Shown: positions 6,145 to 17,710, counted from the stretch's first letter. The stretch: DNA of 18,083 nt from a virus (IMGVR_UViG_2651869755_000020); one strand, 5' to 3'. The notes: a model not told the origin generated them from the sequence alone. Made by a program: numbers and translations.

Positions 6145-6480
6145 ATGTCACAGACCCCATCCGATACTTTTAAATTGTCTTATCCCTTCACCACTGCTGC
6201 AGGCACCAGAATTGAGCTGGTTGAACTGAAACGCCTGACGGTAAAAGACCTGAAGCAGGTGCGCAAAATCAGCAAAAACCCGGCAGACTGGGACGAACCG
6301 CTGATTGCCCGCAGTACTGGTCTTCTCCCGGAAGATCTCGACAATATGGATCTGGCTGATTACCTGCAGTTACAGAAACGATTTCAGCTCATCACGGGGA
6401 TGGGTGAGAGCAACCAGGGCGCTGACGCAGGCGCAGGGGCTGCTGGCGAGATGGTTCCGGTTTCAGCCGGGGGAGATTGA
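6145..6480 (+). CDS. tail assembly chaperone (position equivalent to lambda G / P2 E / Mu gp41)
   Basis: 111-aa ORF with AGGAG RBS 8 nt upstream, located between the tube and tape measure genes. Acidic protein, as expected for tape-measure chaperones. Confidence 0.6.
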   Translation: MSQTPSDTFKLSYPFTTAAGTRIELVELKRLTVKDLKQVRKISKNPADWDEPLIARSTGLLPEDLDNMDLADYLQLQKRFQLITGMGESNQGADAGAGAAGEMVPVSAGGD

Positions 6481-6562
6481 TGCCCTCGATACTGACGATC
6501 TGGAGATGTGGCTGGAGCAGGCTGAAGAGCAAATCAAAAGCGAGTACGGCGACAAATCATAG
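6305..6562 (+). CDS. overlapping second frame; candidate frameshift extension of the tail assembly chaperone
   Basis: Open frame overlapping 6305-6480 in the +1 frame relative to the chaperone and continuing 27 codons beyond its stop (...RFQPGEIDALDTDDLEMWLEQAEEQIKSEYGDKS). Protein-like acidic tail. Position matches the conserved chaperone frameshift of tailed phages. Confidence 0.35.
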   Translation: MPAVLVFSRKISTIWIWLITCSYRNDFSSSRGWVRATRALTQAQGLLARWFRFQPGEIDALDTDDLEMWLEQAEEQIKSEYGDKS

Positions 6563-6637: not shown

Positions 6638-9600
6638 ATGTCGGGACAGTTTTCAGTCGGCGTTGTTATCGGCGGGATGATTGGCAGCACATTCCGTTCT
6701 GCAATGAGCGGTACCCGCCGTGCGCTTGATTCCCTGAGCGATACCTCACGCCGCCTGCAGGAACGTCAGAACGCTTTAACCCGTGCAACAGAACGTTATG
6801 GTCAACTGGGTTCTTCCCGGATGCAGCATCTCAACAGCGAGCTGCTGCGGGTAAGCCGCACCATGGAGCAAATTGAGCGCCAGCAGCGCCGTCTGTCAGC
6901 GGCATCCGCTACCAGTGATGCGCTGAAAGCTAACCGCATGGCGCTGTATGGTCAGGGGATTGAAGCGTATGGCATGGCACAGACTGTTTATCATACGGTT
7001 TCCCCTGCCGTTCAGCAGTCCATGTCTTTTCAGGACAAAATGATTGATATGTCGATCACCGCAAAATATGACAATAAAACGCGGGATGCACTTGCCGGAC
7101 AGATAAAAGGCTGGGCGCTTAAATACAATCAGTATCAGGATGAGCTGCAGGAGGCGGTGGGTTCACTCATCAGCGACAATATTGATAATGTGTCAGATAT
7201 CGGTTTTCTGATGCCGGATATTGCCCGCGCGGCAACGGCAACACGCACGTCTGCTCAGGACTGGGCAAAAGTGGCCGCAGTCTGGCAAAACTCCCTGAAA
7301 GGTGCGGCCAGAGATTTTGGTGCCGTTCAGAATATTATGGCTTATGCCGGTGACCAGGGGTCATTTGAAATCCCGGATCAGGTCAAGTGGATGCAGTCCC
7401 TGGCCCCAATGATGGCGGGTCTTGCCAGTGGAAAAGAGGCTGTTGCTGAAATCGGGGCCAGTCTCCAGATAGCAAAAATCGGTGCAGGTTCCACCGACGA
7501 AGCAGCCAATAATTTTAAAAACTTTCTTACCAAAATTTTTGCCCGCGATACTCAGAAACAGTTTGCTGATCTGGGTATTGATTTGCAGGGATCTATTGCG
7601 AGTTATAAAGCTGCGGGGATCTCTCCGATTGAAGGGATGTTGAGTGTTATAGAACGTTACCTCAATGCCAAAAGCCCCGAAGCGCTGGCCGGCTTCAAAT
7701 CAGCCATGAAAATAAAGAATGATACGGCAAGAGATGAGGCACTTCAGGCTCTGGCGAAAAACTTTGGTCTGGGCGATATGTTCGCGGATATGCAGGTCAT
7801 GGCATTTATCCGCCCGATGCTGGCCAACATGGACAGATATCGAGAGATCCGTGCCGGTGCTCTCAGGGCTGCGGATAACGATTTGCTTGCCAGTGCTTAT
7901 GATCAGCGGCTGAAATCTCCCCTTGAAGCCACTAAAACACTTATGGTCAGCAGTCGCGATCTGGCAATTACGCTGGGCGATCAATTAGCTCCATCTTTTA
8001 TTTCTCTGACTCAGGAACTGCTCCCACTCATTCAGGGGACAAAACACTGGGTAGCGACTCACCCGCAATTTGTCAGTGGGGCTTTTAAGCTCATCAGTGC
8101 GCTCCTTGCGATTAAGATAGCGACTATTGGTCTCAAACTGGGGCTGAATCTCCTTATTTCCCCCTTTGTGAACGTCTGGAAAACTACTGTTTTACTCCGG
8201 ACCAACTGGCATCGACTGACTACCGCACTCGGAGAAGGTGGCAAATTACGCTGGCTTGTCACTGGATTCAGCCGACTGACCAGCGGAGGACTGAAACTCA
8301 GCAAAGTTCTGGCGGGCAGCCTCGTTCGCGGTTTTATGAGCGCTGCACGTGCCGTTCTCTGGATTGGGCGAGCGCTGATGATGAATCCCATCGGTCTCGT
8401 TATCACCGCTGTCGCGACAGCAGCTTACCTTATCTACCGCAACTGGGGGGCTGTCAGTGGTTGGTTTAAACAGCGCTGGGCTGACATTCAGGAAGCCTTT
8501 AACGGCGGCATTGTGGGAATTGGTAAGTTGCTGATTAACTGGTCGCCGGCAGGCCTGCTCTATAAAGCCTTTGCGGCTGCGCTGAAATATTTCGGCGTTG
8601 CTCTGCCGGCAAAGTTCACCGACTTCGGTGGCCATCTTATCGACGGTCTGATTAACGGTATCAAAAGCAAATGGGGGTCGCTCAAATCCAGTGTAACCGG
8701 AATGGGTGACAGCATCAGTAGCTGGTTTAAACAGCGCTGGGCTGACATTCAGGAAGCCTTTAACGGCGGCATTGTGGGAATTGGTAAGTTGCTGATTAAC
8801 TGGTCGCCGGCAGGCCTGCTCTATAAAGCCTTTGCGGCTGCGCTGAAATATTTCGGCGTTGCTCTGCCGGCAAAGTTCACCGACTTCGGTGGCCATCTTA
8901 TCGACGGTCTGATTAACGGTATCAAAAACAAATGGGGGTCGCTCAAATCCAGTGTAACCGGAATGGGTGACAGCATCAGTAGCTGGTTTAAACAGTGCTG
9001 GGCTGACATTCAGGAAGCCTTTAACGGCGGTATCGCGGGAACTGGTAAGCTGCTGATTAACTGGTCGCCGGCAGGTCTGCTCTATAAAGCCTTTGCAGCT
9101 GCGCTGAAATATCTTGGTGTTGATCTGCCGGCAAAGTTCACCGACTTCGGTGGCCATCTTGTCGACGGTCTGATTAACGGTATCAAAAACAAATGGGAGT
9201 CGCTCAAATCCAGTGTAACCGGAATGGGTGACAGCATCAGTGGCTGGTTCAGCGAAAAGCTGGGCATTCATTCGCCGAGCCGCGTGTTTATGGGCTTTGG
9301 TGACAATATCGCGCAGGGGGCCGCCATTGGCCTGCAGCGGACCACTCCGCTTGCAGCTCTGGCCGGGCAGCGAATGGCCAGTGAACTGCTCCCCAGAATG
9401 CCCGTGAGCATTCAGGGGCCAGAAATACGGGATAACACTTCAGGTGTTCGCTTCAGTATGCCGTTGCCCGATATCAATGGGTTTATGTCGTCTGCTAAAA
9501 ATGCGATCGGAGCCGTAATCAATAGTTTGTCTTCCATGCCCGTTATTCCGCTCTCCACCCGGGCATCGATTTTACCAGGGCAACGTCTGGCAAATGAGAT

Positions 9601-9850
9601 GACACCGGATGTTCCCCGTATCCCCTCGCCTGAAATCCTGGCTGCCGGATATTCAGGCCGTGGTGCAGCTGCAACCGGCGGTGGAACGTCTGGTGGTATC
9701 CAGGTCAGCTTTAATCCTCAGTTTTTCCTCAATGGCAGGGAAACCACAGCGCCTGCAGGACTGACTGGTGCCCTGAATATGAGTCTGCATGAGCTGGAAA
9801 AAATGCTGGAGCGTCTGCTGGCTCAGAAACAACGTAAGGAGTACCGCTGA
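6638..9850 (+). CDS. tail tape measure protein
   Basis: 1070-aa ORF with GGAGG RBS, the largest gene, directly downstream of the chaperone pair. Has a long helical N-terminal half and internal tandem repeats. Start of the downstream gene overlaps its stop. Confidence 0.9.
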   Translation: MSGQFSVGVVIGGMIGSTFRSAMSGTRRALDSLSDTSRRLQERQNALTRATERYGQLGSSRMQHLNSELLRVSRTMEQIERQQRRLSAASATSDALKANRMALYGQGIEAYGMAQTVYHTVSPAVQQSMSFQDKMIDMSITAKYDNKTRDALAGQIKGWALKYNQYQDELQEAVGSLISDNIDNVSDIGFLMPDIARAATATRTSAQDWAKVAAVWQNSLKGAARDFGAVQNIMAYAGDQGSFEIPDQVKWMQSLAPMMAGLASGKEAVAEIGASLQIAKIGAGSTDEAANNFKNFLTKIFARDTQKQFADLGIDLQGSIASYKAAGISPIEGMLSVIERYLNAKSPEALAGFKSAMKIKNDTARDEALQALAKNFGLGDMFADMQVMAFIRPMLANMDRYREIRAGALRAADNDLLASAYDQRLKSPLEATKTLMVSSRDLAITLGDQLAPSFISLTQELLPLIQGTKHWVATHPQFVSGAFKLISALLAIKIATIGLKLGLNLLISPFVNVWKTTVLLRTNWHRLTTALGEGGKLRWLVTGFSRLTSGGLKLSKVLAGSLVRGFMSAARAVLWIGRALMMNPIGLVITAVATAAYLIYRNWGAVSGWFKQRWADIQEAFNGGIVGIGKLLINWSPAGLLYKAFAAALKYFGVALPAKFTDFGGHLIDGLINGIKSKWGSLKSSVTGMGDSISSWFKQRWADIQEAFNGGIVGIGKLLINWSPAGLLYKAFAAALKYFGVALPAKFTDFGGHLIDGLINGIKNKWGSLKSSVTGMGDSISSWFKQCWADIQEAFNGGIAGTGKLLINWSPAGLLYKAFAAALKYLGVDLPAKFTDFGGHLVDGLINGIKNKWESLKSSVTGMGDSISGWFSEKLGIHSPSRVFMGFGDNIAQGAAIGLQRTTPLAALAGQRMASELLPRMPVSIQGPEIRDNTSGVRFSMPLPDINGFMSSAKNAIGAVINSLSSMPVIPLSTRASILPGQRLANEMTPDVPRIPSPEILAAGYSGRGAAATGGGTSGGIQVSFNPQFFLNGRETTAPAGLTGALNMSLHELEKMLERLLAQKQRKEYR
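8462..9244 (+). repeat. three tandem 261-bp (87-codon) in-frame repeats inside the tape measure gene
   Basis: Unit begins TGGTTTAAACAGCGCTGGGCTGACATTCAGGAAGCC at 8462, 8723 and 8984. Copies 1 and 2 differ at a single base (AAAAGC vs AAAAAC). Copy 3 carries about a dozen substitutions. Confidence 0.9.
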
Positions 9851-14768: not shown

Positions 14769-16391
14769 ATGGGAAACCTGAATGAAACAGAAAAGTGGGA
14801 AGAAAAAATCTATCAACTGGAGACATCAGATCCGGTTCTGGGTGGTGCTGACGGGATATCAAATCGAGCCCCCCGGCAACTGGCAAACAGGACGAAATGG
14901 CTGAAGAAAAAAACGGAGGAAGCCGCACAGTCACTGGCTGAACACGTACGTTCCCGTAACCACCCGGACGCGACACTGACAGCTAAGGGGTTCACCCAAC
15001 TGAGCAGTGCCACCAACAGCACCTCTGAAACGCTGGCCGCCACACCAAAAGCCGTCAAGGCTGCATACGACCTTGCAGCCGGCAAGGCACCCGTCAGTCA
15101 CACTCACCCGTGGAGTCAGATAACGGGAGTGCCTGCTGCCTCGCTGACGGCAAAAGGCACCGTACAGCTGAGCAGTGCCACGGACAGTCAATCAGAAACT
15201 GAGGCTGCCACGCCGAAGGCTGTGAAAATCGCGTATGATCTGGCCCGGGGAAAATACACAGCCCAGGATGCAACAACGACCCGTAAAGGGATCGTACAAC
15301 TGAGCAGTGCCACCAACAGCACCTCTGAAACGCTGGCCGCCACACCAAAGGCCGTCAAGGCTGCATATGACCTGGCTGCCGGCAAGGCCCCCGTCAGCCA
15401 CACTCACCCGTGGAGTCAGATAACGGGAGTGCCTGCTGCCTCGCTGACGGCAAAAGGCACCGTACAACTGAGCAGCGCCACGGACAGTCAATCAGAAACT
15501 GAGGCTGCCACGCCGAAGGCGGTCAAGGCTGCATACGACCTTGCAGCCGGCAAGGCGCCCGTCAGCCACACTCACCCGTGGAGTCAGATAACGGGAGTGC
15601 CTGCTGCCTCGCTGACGGCAAAAGGCACCATACAATTGAGCAGTGCCATCAACAGCACGTCTGAAATACTGGCCGCCACACCGAAAGCGGTCAAGGCTGC
15701 ATACGATCTGGCAAACGGAAAACAACCGGCAGATGCCACGCTCACTGCTCTGGCAGGACTTGCCACTGCAGCAGATCGGTTGCCTTATTTTACCGGAGCA
15801 GACCGCGCAGCGCTGGCAACCCTTACAGCTATTGGTCGCGCTATTATCGCTAAGGGCAGTATAAAAGATGTCCTCAATTACCTTGGTTTGGGGGAAGGCT
15901 CTGCACTGCCTGTTGGTGTGCCTGTTCCATGGCCCACCGCCACACCGCCAGCAGGCTGGTTAAAGTGCGACGGGCGCGCCTTTACAAAAGAACAATATCC
16001 TGTTCTGGCCAGAGTCTACCCGACCCTCCGTCTTCCCGATTTGCGCGGTGAGTTTATCCGTGGATGGGACGACGGGCGCAAAGTTGATACGGGGCGTTCA
16101 TTGCTAAGTGGTCAGGCTGCAACATTTATTCGTACAGCTTTGCAGGATTATTACGGTTACGATCTGAATACTAATGTCAAAGTAGGTATCGCTTTTGCTA
16201 CTGCTGATTCTGTTATAACCGTTGGAAACCCAGCTAATCCTAAAGCAGGAAAAAATAGCGATTATGTTCCTGCATCAGCAGATAACTCTATAACGGGTAT
16301 TCAAAGGACAGCGGAGGATAATTTTACCGGGGCATGGATATCAATGCGCCCCCGCAATGTTGCGTTTAATTACATCGTAAGGGCCGCATAA
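14769..16391 (+). CDS. tail fiber protein with internal phage-fiber repeats and a C-terminal collar-type receptor-binding domain
   Basis: 540-aa ORF from ATG 14769 (GGGAG RBS about 10 nt upstream; the track starts at TTG 14763). Five copies of the motif LTAKG-x-QLSSAT-x-S-x-SET-x-AATPKAVK-x-AYDLA, typical of lambda Stf / Mu S / P2 H fibers. C-terminal region (PWPTATPPAGWLKCDGRAF...LPDLRGEFIRGWDDGR) resembles the phage tail collar domain. Confidence 0.85.
   Translation: MGNLNETEKWEEKIYQLETSDPVLGGADGISNRAPRQLANRTKWLKKKTEEAAQSLAEHVRSRNHPDATLTAKGFTQLSSATNSTSETLAATPKAVKAAYDLAAGKAPVSHTHPWSQITGVPAASLTAKGTVQLSSATDSQSETEAATPKAVKIAYDLARGKYTAQDATTTRKGIVQLSSATNSTSETLAATPKAVKAAYDLAAGKAPVSHTHPWSQITGVPAASLTAKGTVQLSSATDSQSETEAATPKAVKAAYDLAAGKAPVSHTHPWSQITGVPAASLTAKGTIQLSSAINSTSEILAATPKAVKAAYDLANGKQPADATLTALAGLATAADRLPYFTGADRAALATLTAIGRAIIAKGSIKDVLNYLGLGEGSALPVGVPVPWPTATPPAGWLKCDGRAFTKEQYPVLARVYPTLRLPDLRGEFIRGWDDGRKVDTGRSLLSGQAATFIRTALQDYYGYDLNTNVKVGIAFATADSVITVGNPANPKAGKNSDYVPASADNSITGIQRTAEDNFTGAWISMRPRNVAFNYIVRAA
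14976..15720 (+). repeat. in-frame direct repeats inside the tail fiber gene (five fiber-repeat units; two about 220-bp stretches nearly identical)
   Basis: Units start near 14976, 15144, 15281, 15445 and 15613. Stretches beginning CAACTGAGCAGTGCCACCAACAGCACCTCTGAAACG at 14997 and 15298 remain near-identical for about 220 bp. Confidence 0.85.
15881..15922 (+). repeat. left inverted repeat of the invertible cassette; overlaps a hix/gix-like crossover site (about 15871-15896, core TT at 15883-15884)
   Basis: CCTTGGTTTGGGGGAAGGCTCTGCACTGCCTGTTGGTGTGCC. Its reverse complement matches 16416-16457 at 40 of 42 positions. The half-sites around the TT core resemble the 12-2-12 recombination sites of Hin/Gin/Cin/Pin invertases. 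Confidence 0.7.
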
Positions 16392-16415
16392 AAACGTTGG
16401 TTTAGGAGAAGGCTC

Positions 16416-16457
16416 GGCACACCAACAGGCAATGCAGAGCCTTCCCCCAAACCAACG
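16416..16457 (-). repeat. right inverted repeat of the invertible cassette (core AA at 16454-16455), about 65 bp upstream of the invertase start
   Basis: GGCACACCAACAGGCAATGCAGAGCCTTCCCCCAAACCAACG is the reverse complement of the left repeat with 2 mismatches. Placement next to the invertase gene mirrors gixR/gin and hixR/hin. Confidence 0.7.
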
Positions 16458-16521
16458 TTTATCTCTCAAATCCTCCCCACATTATCTCAGTACTTTAACC
16501 ACTCAAAAGGGAGTATTTTTA

Positions 16522-17094
16522 ATGCTGATTGGCTACATACGTGTGTCAACAAATGACCAAAACACAGATTTGCAACGCAATGCATTAATGTGCGCAGGAT
16601 GTGAACAGATTTTTGAGGACAAAATGAGCGGAACCAAGTCGGAACGACCAGGCCTGAAACGCGCTTTAAAGTGCCTTAAAAGAGGGGATACATTGGTGGT
16701 CTGGAAGCTGGATCGGTTGGGTAGAAGAATGAAACACCTCATTGCTCTCACAGAAGAGCTACGCGCAAAAGGTGTCAATTTTCGCAGTCTGACGGATTCA
16801 ATCGATACCAGCACTCCGATGGGAAGGTTCTTTTTTCATATGATGGGTGCACTGGCAGAAATGGAGCGTGAACTGATAGTTGAGCGCACGCTGGCAGGAC
16901 TGGCTGCTGCGCGAGCACAAGGAAGAGTTGGAGGACGTCGCCCGAAACTGACGAAGGAGCAGCATGAGCAGATCGCAAGATTGCTCCAGAAAGGGTATGA
17001 CAGAAAGCGGCTGGCAATTATCTATGATATTGGACTGTCAACGATCTACCGCTACCACCCTGTTGGGACTGTCATAACGCAACCTGAAATGTAA
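16522..17094 (+). CDS. site-specific DNA invertase, serine recombinase of the Gin/Pin/Cin/Hin family
   Basis: 190-aa ORF from ATG 16522 (AAAGGGAG RBS). Begins MLIGYIRVSTNDQNTDLQRNAL..., with GDTLVVWKLDRLGR and the C-terminal HTH, near-identical in pattern to Gin/Pin as recalled. The track start at 16432 adds 30 non-conserved residues and overlaps the inverted repeat, so it is rejected. Confidence 0.9.
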   Translation: MLIGYIRVSTNDQNTDLQRNALMCAGCEQIFEDKMSGTKSERPGLKRALKCLKRGDTLVVWKLDRLGRRMKHLIALTEELRAKGVNFRSLTDSIDTSTPMGRFFFHMMGALAEMERELIVERTLAGLAAARAQGRVGGRRPKLTKEQHEQIARLLQKGYDRKRLAIIYDIGLSTIYRYHPVGTVITQPEM

Positions 17095-17172
17095 TTCTTT
17101 TTCAAATAATGAAACGCCGCGTGGATGCCATTTATCGCACAAGATAGAGTGCATTTATCGCGCGGCGCATCA
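17095..17172 (+). mobile_element. putative right terminus (attR end) of the Mu-like prophage with repeated transposase-binding-like motifs
   Basis: Two copies of GCATTTATCGC (17128-17141 and 17149-17163). Terminal sequence ...TTTATCGCGCGGCGCATCA ends in CA and matches my recollection of the Mu right end (...TTTTTCGTGCGCCGCTTCA) at about 15 of 19 positions. Host prpR coding sequence begins immediately after. Confidence 0.5.
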
Positions 17173-17710
17173 CGTCGGCGGGCATCAGCCTGTTCCGGTA
17201 GATGTACGGGTCATTAGCGCCACTCACTGCAATCTGGAAGAAGATATGCAGCAAGGACGTTTTCGCCGTGATCTGTTTTATCGGCTGAGTATTTTGCGTC
17301 TGCAATTGCCACCACTGCGCGAGCGGGTGGCGGATATTCTTCCGCTGGCGGAAAGCTTTTTGAAAGTGTCTCTGGCGGCGCTCTCCGCCCCATTTTCTGC
17401 TGCATTACGCCAGGGGTTACAGGCAAGTGAAACTGTGCTGCTGCACTACGACTGGCCAAGCAATATTCGTGAACTGCGCAATATGATGGAACGACTGGCG
17501 CTGTTTTTAAGTGTGGAACCGACGCCGGATTTAACGCCGCAGTTTATGCAACTGCTACTGCCGGAACTGGCGCGCGAGTCGGCGAAAACTCCCGCTCCAC
17601 GCTTACTGACACCACAACAGGCACTGGAGAAATTTAATGGCGATAAAACAGCAGCGGCGAATTATTTAGGCATCAGCCGGACGACGTTCTGGCGGCGGCT
17701 GAAAAGCTGA
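17173..17710 (+). pseudogene. prpR: 3' fragment (about 180 codons) of the sigma-54-dependent propionate regulator gene, cut by the prophage insertion
   Basis: The frame translates from about 17173 as ...VGGHQPVPVDVRVISATHCNLEEDMQQGRFRRDLFYRL..., the conserved end of a sigma-54 activator AAA+ domain, then a C-terminal Fis-type HTH (NYLGISRTTFWRRLKS). The same frame upstream of about 17170 is not activator-like. Convergent yahO follows after 97 bp, as in the E. coli yahO-prpR arrangement I recall. Confidence 0.7.

Follow-up and report, generated by a model that had tools for sequence, protein, structure and literature searches.

A palindrome between the tail-fibre and invertase genes of a Mu-like prophage is very probably the scar of a deletion in a three-site inversion system

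We conclude with high confidence that the palindrome between the fibre stop codon and the invertase start codon in the window (the whole stretch of 18,083 nucleotides that was analysed) was left behind as a scar when an illegitimate deletion removed 1558 bp from a three-site tail-fibre inversion system belonging to a Mu-like prophage in prpR. Read from the constant part of the fibre gene towards the invertase gene, the parental locus carried crossover sites A, B and C in that order: cassette Sv1 lay between A and B, and between B and C came cassette Sv3, a gene for tail-fibre assembly and a reversed cassette Sv2, with the invertase gene beyond C. The start of Sv3 and that of the reversed Sv2 stood as an inverted repeat with about 1.2 kb between them. 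The deletion joined a GGC lying 21 nt inside B to a GGC lying 38 nt inside C, leaving two cassette stubs face to face as the palindrome; the stubs pair because the cassettes share a leader, which makes the starts of Sv3 and Sv2 homologous and inverted. The original prediction, which was made from the window alone, had offered three readings of the structure (a deletion scar that had lost alternative fibre exons and a chaperone gene, a decoy or regulatory invertase-binding site, and a long hairpin terminator for the fibre gene), of which the first is borne out by intact relatives, in which the missing 1558 bp are Sv3, the assembly gene and Sv2.

The palindrome lies between two genes of recognizable function. 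The tail-fibre gene (14769–16391, + strand) encodes 540 amino acids comprising a constant part followed by cassette Sv1 with its tail-collar domain; Pfam assigns it five Phage_fiber_2 repeats and a C-terminal Collar domain, the latter encoded downstream of site A, and the gene is annotated in relatives as a tail fiber protein. All of the cassettes open with a common leader of about 40 bp just inside the crossover site, encoding ...LGLGEGSALPVGVP... The invertase gene (16522–17094, + strand) encodes a Gin/Hin-family serine DNA invertase of 190 amino acids with Pfam matches to Resolvase (E 8e-51) and HTH_7, and residues 1–181 match the Mu Gin structures 3uj3 and 4m6f (E about 1e-93). The protein thus has the length (~190 amino acids), N-terminal resolvase domain and C-terminal helix–turn–helix of Din-family invertases, which carry their catalytic serine near position 9–10, and the motif YIRVSTNDQ is conserved. 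Its annotated, Gin-homologous start is at 16522 and is preceded by GGGAG; in a mechanical list of open reading frames the gene begins earlier, with an ATG at 16432 that falls within the palindrome, and the resulting extension (16432–16521) is probably an artefact.

Three crossover sites of 26 bp, each consisting of two 12-bp half-sites around a 2-bp core, can be delineated, and A, B and C share the core AA/TT, so that partner cores are identical. Site A (15871–15896, + polarity, core TT at 15883–84) marks the constant/variable boundary of the fibre gene; site B (16385–16410, + polarity, core TT at 16397–98) overlaps the fibre stop codon and contributes to the left arm of the palindrome; and site C (16442–16467, − polarity, core AA at 16454–55) is proximal to the invertase and contributes to the right arm. 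The hix-like element predicted in each arm is therefore present at the core coordinates given for it, with B in the same polarity as A and C in the opposite polarity, and with 57 bp between B and C. Written with the cassette-side half first, A reads TTCCCCCAAACC-AA-GGTAATTGAGGA, B reads TTCTCCTAAACC-AA-CGTTTTTATGCG (+ polarity) and C reads TTCCCCCAAACC-AA-CGTTTATCTCTC (− polarity), compared with TTCCTGTAAACC-GA-GGTTTTGGATAA for gix taken from the Mu genome record. The cassette-side half of all three (TTCYCCYAAACC) agrees with that of Mu gix (TTCCTGTAAACC) at 9/12 positions and the outer halves agree less well (A 7/12, B 5/12, C 4/12; all ratios counted by hand from the printed sequences), those of B and C poorly enough to count as a point against the reading, a comparison that identifies the sites as Gin/Hin-type and upholds the predicted similarity to invertase crossover sites. 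With A and B in direct orientation and C inverted, the locus has three sites in mixed orientation that support overlapping inversions; the segment that can be inverted at present runs from the core of A to the core of C (15883–16455, 573 bp).

The inverted pair originally described (16393–16423 and 16429–16459) does match its reverse complement at 25/31 positions, and the optimal register is slightly offset, pairing 16392–16419 with 16433–16460 at 25/28 positions (89%) with 13 nt between the arms and the centre at 16426. No other inverted repeat with arms of 28 nt, 25 or more matches and a loop of no more than 30 nt occurs in the 18-kb window. The strongest repeat in the region is nonetheless formed by A and C rather than by B and C: 43 nt at 15880–15922 are 95% complementary to 16416–16458, a repeat that the earlier description had overlooked.

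The nature of the palindrome is evident from its intact relatives, which hold about 1.6 kb between B and C. In strain FDAARGOS_1303, whose fibre protein (WP_074441576.1) and invertase (WP_000904922.1) are identical to those of the window, the interval between the two genes contains the Sv3 cassette annotated as a phage tail protein (+ strand), the tail-fibre assembly gene (+ strand) and Sv2 (− strand), and the window corresponds to this arrangement minus 1558 bp. Reading from the left, the window is base-for-base identical to FDAARGOS_1303 up to 16418, and reading from the right it is identical back to 16416, with a right flank that matches at 757/757 positions to the end of the prophage; at the level of sequence, the deletion and its endpoints can be read directly from this alignment. 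The junction (16416–16418) is a 3-bp microhomology, GGC. To its left, 16399–16418 (+ strand) is a 20-nt stub of the 5' end of Sv3, identical to FDAARGOS_1303 up to 16418 and diverging thereafter; from 16416 rightwards, 16416–16453 (− strand) is a 38-nt stub of the reversed 5' end of Sv2. The starts of the two cassettes are repeated in inverted orientation in FDAARGOS_1303 over about 216 bp (92.6% identity, about 1.2 kb apart), and both deletion endpoints fall just inside the base of this repeat. A second intact relative, GF43, has the same parts with the B–C segment in the other orientation, and in silico B×C inversion of GF43 yields the FDAARGOS_1303 arrangement and the same deletion endpoints. 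A further strain, AF20, is an A×C isomer. Assembly artefact is ruled out as the source of the junction, which is identical in five independent records, two of them assemblies from the complete-genome collection.

The same comparisons reveal that the sites recombine at their cores. Three outer half-sites (fibre side, TGTCCTCAATTACC; Sv1 3' flank, GCCGCATAAAAACG; invertase side, TTGAGAGATAAACG) are found in varied combination with three cassette half-sites (Sv1, GGTTTGGGGGAAGGCTCTGCAC; Sv2, GGTTTGGGGGAAGGCTCTGCAT; Sv3, GGTTTAGGAGAAGGCTCGGCG) across isomers, and recombined halves indicative of reciprocal core exchange between inverted sites are present in GF43, AF20, FDAARGOS_1303, OHKR01000135, MMC-J-0105 and the window. 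Both isomer classes are represented among natural sequences: half-site exchange at the core of A, as expected of A×C inversion, is seen in AF20, OHKR01000135 and MMC-J-0105, and B has recombined with C in the intact relatives (GF43 versus FDAARGOS_1303), where the exchange can be narrowed to about 11 bp spanning the TT core. Together, the invertase, the site format and the observed exchange place the intact parent in the Gin/Hin/Cin/Pin/Min family. Several alternative C-terminal cassettes (Sv1, Sv2 and Sv3, with tfa) are present in the intact relatives. The window retains only Sv1 whole, with Sv2 and Sv3 reduced to their stubs of 38 and 20 nt, and because it lacks several cassettes it is a degenerate derivative of the multiple-inversion (shufflon-type) tail-fibre regions and not a functioning member of them.

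The parental arrangement is widespread and the scar is rare. At least 12 complete Escherichia coli genomes contain the parental junction (end of Sv1, site B and start of Sv3) with 100% identity across 500 bp, and in 187 genomes at least 80% of it is covered. Of 5426 complete genomes, only two, LC-1302-2020 and MMC-J-0105, have the scar, which also occurs in two metagenome contigs (OHKR01000135 and OHOG01000314) and in assembly GCA_013085425.1, which encodes the exact fibre protein of the window in the same gene layout. A search of a phage collection with 15700–17100 returned four records only, none with the scar, and is uninformative on the scar. All scar carriers whose sequence reaches the flank have the prpR/yahO insertion in common, and the carriers are a single lineage.

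Within this lineage the A–C segment is found in both orientations. LC-1302-2020, OHOG01000314 and GCA_013085425.1 share the orientation of the window, and MMC-J-0105 and OHKR01000135 have the scar and the prpR/yahO insertion with the A–C segment inverted; indeed, once 15883–16455 is inverted in silico, the window runs colinear, with no gap, along 3087 bp of MMC-J-0105, host flank included. These two orientations come from different isolates and not from one culture. Their occurrence within the scar lineage shows that at least one A×C inversion followed the deletion and that site C is still active, and we infer from that inversion that switching may be ongoing. The right arm is thus more than a relic: C is the normal invertase-proximal site and continues to recombine with A in scar-bearing strains. 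In the flipped state the fibre ends ...NYLGLGEGSALPVGVPSLLLNQRFYAALTM and stop, and the collar domain is gone; the protein consists of the constant part, 14 residues of cassette leader and 14 out-of-context residues (...LGLGEGSALPVGVPSLLLNQRFYAALTM and stop). The annotation of MMC-J-0105 reflects this, with a shorter "tail fiber protein" beside a "partial phage tail protein" that is the detached Sv1.

In our reading, C stayed the working partner of A after the deletion, and the Gin-like invertase can still flip the 573-bp A–C segment, one orientation giving the complete fibre (constant part plus Sv1) and the other a truncated fibre without the receptor-binding collar domain. A stronger version, in which a three-way host-range switch was reduced to a retained binary switch between a complete fibre and one without its receptor-binding domain, B acts as a competitor that changes the rate, and both orientations persist through a benefit to the host or to a domesticated tail particle, seems to us unlikely. 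Under the reading that we prefer, the deletion scar, B is stranded 57 bp from C, a very short distance given the looping limits of the invertasome, and probably no longer recombines, because it is too near C and flipped forms are absent: none of the five carrier records shows the inner 57 bp inverted, consistent with the original view that 57 bp is too close for normal inversion.

By analogy with the family, invertase dimers on A and C would synapse at a Fis-bound enhancer in supercoiled DNA. Such enhancers usually sit in the 5' part of the invertase gene, and a putative one lies within the invertase gene of the window (16615–16675), where two Fis-like 15-mers (G-N13-C with an AT-rich centre), matching at the level of the motif, lie at +94 and +140; Mu gin has Fis-like 15-mers at the same two positions. 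In Hin-type inversion, synapsis takes place at a Fis-bound enhancer and strand exchange proceeds by subunit rotation, and the Fis-site spacing in hin is 47 bp, to which the spacing in the window is close (PMC3798978).

The deletion itself probably arose by microhomology-mediated slippage, and a hairpin formed by the inverted cassette leaders may have helped; the 3-bp microhomology would be a weak sign of the mechanism. A deletion made by the invertase, conceivable because enzymes of this class can act on pseudo-sites, was rejected on inspection: the junction (GGCTC GGC ACACC) shows no AAACC-type half-site on either side, and B and C are inverted, so that site-specific recombination between them would produce an inversion instead of a deletion. 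More than one order of events could yield the observed sequence, since the GF43 orientation could have suffered the deletion first and then a B×C flip of 57 bp, but this needs an extra and unlikely step.

An alternative explanation is that the hairpin was selected as a terminator, or as an RNA-stabilizing 3' hairpin, for the fibre gene. The RNA fold of 16380–16480 is very stable (−39.2 kcal/mol, z = −6.1 versus shuffles) and the hairpin stands directly 3' of the fibre stop codon. This stability, however, follows from two homologous cassette starts having been set face to face, and beyond the stem the other hallmarks of an intrinsic terminator are missing: the sequence after the stem is AUCUCUCAAAUCC with no U-tract, a terminator scan makes no call at the hairpin, and the structure is not conserved in related elements. 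Many intact relatives have no hairpin at the equivalent place, where site B runs into a whole cassette instead, and only the 2 of 5426 complete genomes that bear the scar possess it. Moreover, in the flipped isomer the hairpin falls within the fibre reading frame and not 3' of it. We therefore regard the terminator reading in the original prediction as very unlikely.

The suggestion that B and C form a decoy or regulatory module, tuning inversion frequency or invertase expression through, for example, an unproductive B–C synapse, fares worse still. Both sites keep the conserved cassette-side half and the AA/TT core, invertase dimers probably still bind both, and C precedes the start of the invertase gene by 68 bp. 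Such a module would nonetheless have no conservation beyond one insertion lineage, the arrangement is fully accounted for as a by-product of the deletion, and A×C inversion still took place in the scar lineage, so that this second option of the original prediction finds no support and appears highly improbable. That the 57-bp B–C segment is a miniature invertible element is hardly credible, despite the inverted sites with identical cores and the B×C recombination in the intact parent (GF43 versus FDAARGOS_1303), given that the inner 57 bp do not differ in relative orientation among the five carrier records and that the invertasome requires DNA looping between sites and enhancer (PMC3798978), for which 57 bp is very short.

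With the palindrome understood as a deletion scar, the intact three-site parent with its three C-termini is an ordinary system of a known kind. Its closest architectural counterpart is the fibre shufflon of a prophage in enteropathogenic E. coli (EPEC) E2348/69, labelled P2-like by its authors (Goldberg et al. 2014; PMC4272514). In both loci a single fibre gene can take any of three C-termini, the repeats number three and are homologous in part, and a pair of overlapping inversions (of about 2.2 and 1.8 kb in EPEC and about 2.13 and 1.62 kb in FDAARGOS_1303) accompanies four variants. The likeness is one of architecture, and the window, unlike the EPEC locus, has lost two of three cassettes and the chaperone, is left with the large inversion alone, now 573 bp, and yields a truncated fibre in one of its two states.

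The G segment of Mu shares a Mu-like transposable host element, an invertase close to Gin (E about 1e-93), 26-bp sites with a 2-bp core, one site at the constant/variable fibre boundary and another that precedes the invertase start codon by 68 bp, exactly as gixR precedes gin. It differs in that its sites and its cassettes number two and every cassette comes with a chaperone; the family of the window uses three sites and includes two cassettes that are collar-domain tips with no dedicated chaperone; the core is AA/TT in the window and GA/TC in Mu, and the window itself keeps one cassette. Multiple sites in mixed orientation also shuffle fibre C-terminal cassettes in the Min system of p15B, which reportedly has six crossover sites, and in the Cin/C segment of P1. 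In P1-like plasmids, fibre-switch regions have been reported to be degenerate and poor in cassettes, and also to be modified or lost (PMC6906374). The invertase of the window is nearer to Gin than to the invertases of P1-like plasmids (about 75% identical at the DNA level).

These results matter chiefly to annotators. The appropriate label for the palindrome is a deletion junction with an invertase crossover site on each side, and neither a terminator nor a new regulatory element, and the entries "truncated tail fibre" and "partial phage tail protein" in sister strains represent inversion isomers and not independent mutations. The scar opens no new question on recombination mechanisms. It does provide a natural, well-documented case of the decay of a multi-cassette fibre shufflon, in which an illegitimate deletion between inverted homologous leaders, with C active afterwards, has left a 573-bp flip between complete and truncated fibre.

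The host element splits prpR and is recognized as a Mu-like transposable prophage by its 5-bp target duplication (CGTCG) and by genes for Mor, Gam, a MuB-like protein and a DDE transposase; the left part, available in LC-1302-2020, encodes Mor, gp16, Gam, the MuB-like ATPase, the DDE transposase and a repressor, with transcription of this early region directed away from the late genes. The right end of the prophage is at 17172 of the window (...GCGCATCA; window 17095–17177, record L010 2824–2835). Relatives reside at unrelated chromosomal sites, by a truncated phoX-family gene, by yoaI and near sfa. A copy of an IS66-family element (ISEc23), whose end occupies positions 1–215 of the window, has inserted between a virion morphogenesis gene and the next head gene. 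Because of this insertion the prophage may be defective, and if so its fibre phenotypes may go unexpressed in virions. A Pfam search of the adjoining open reading frame (216–1343) gave no match.

Two further observations concern the fibre gene and its surviving cassette. Long tandem repeats occupy 14963–15712 of the fibre gene (282-nt units at spacings of 300 and 168), and the 540-residue fibre of the window has one 300-bp unit fewer than the 640-residue fibre of LC-1302-2020, GF43 and FDAARGOS_1303; within one insertion lineage, the number of repeats is polymorphic. Sv1 with its flanking crossover sites (15880–16419) is also found on E. coli plasmid records of about 91–97 kb, at 769 plasmid places. 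The size of these records suggests P1-like elements, and the distribution of Sv1 suggests cassette exchange between Mu-like prophages and phage-plasmids. Elsewhere in the window, two small overlapping open reading frames (6145–6480 and 6305–6562) lie just upstream of the tape-measure gene (6638–9850), a layout at 6145–6562 that we take to be typical of a tail-chaperone pair expressed by programmed frameshift.
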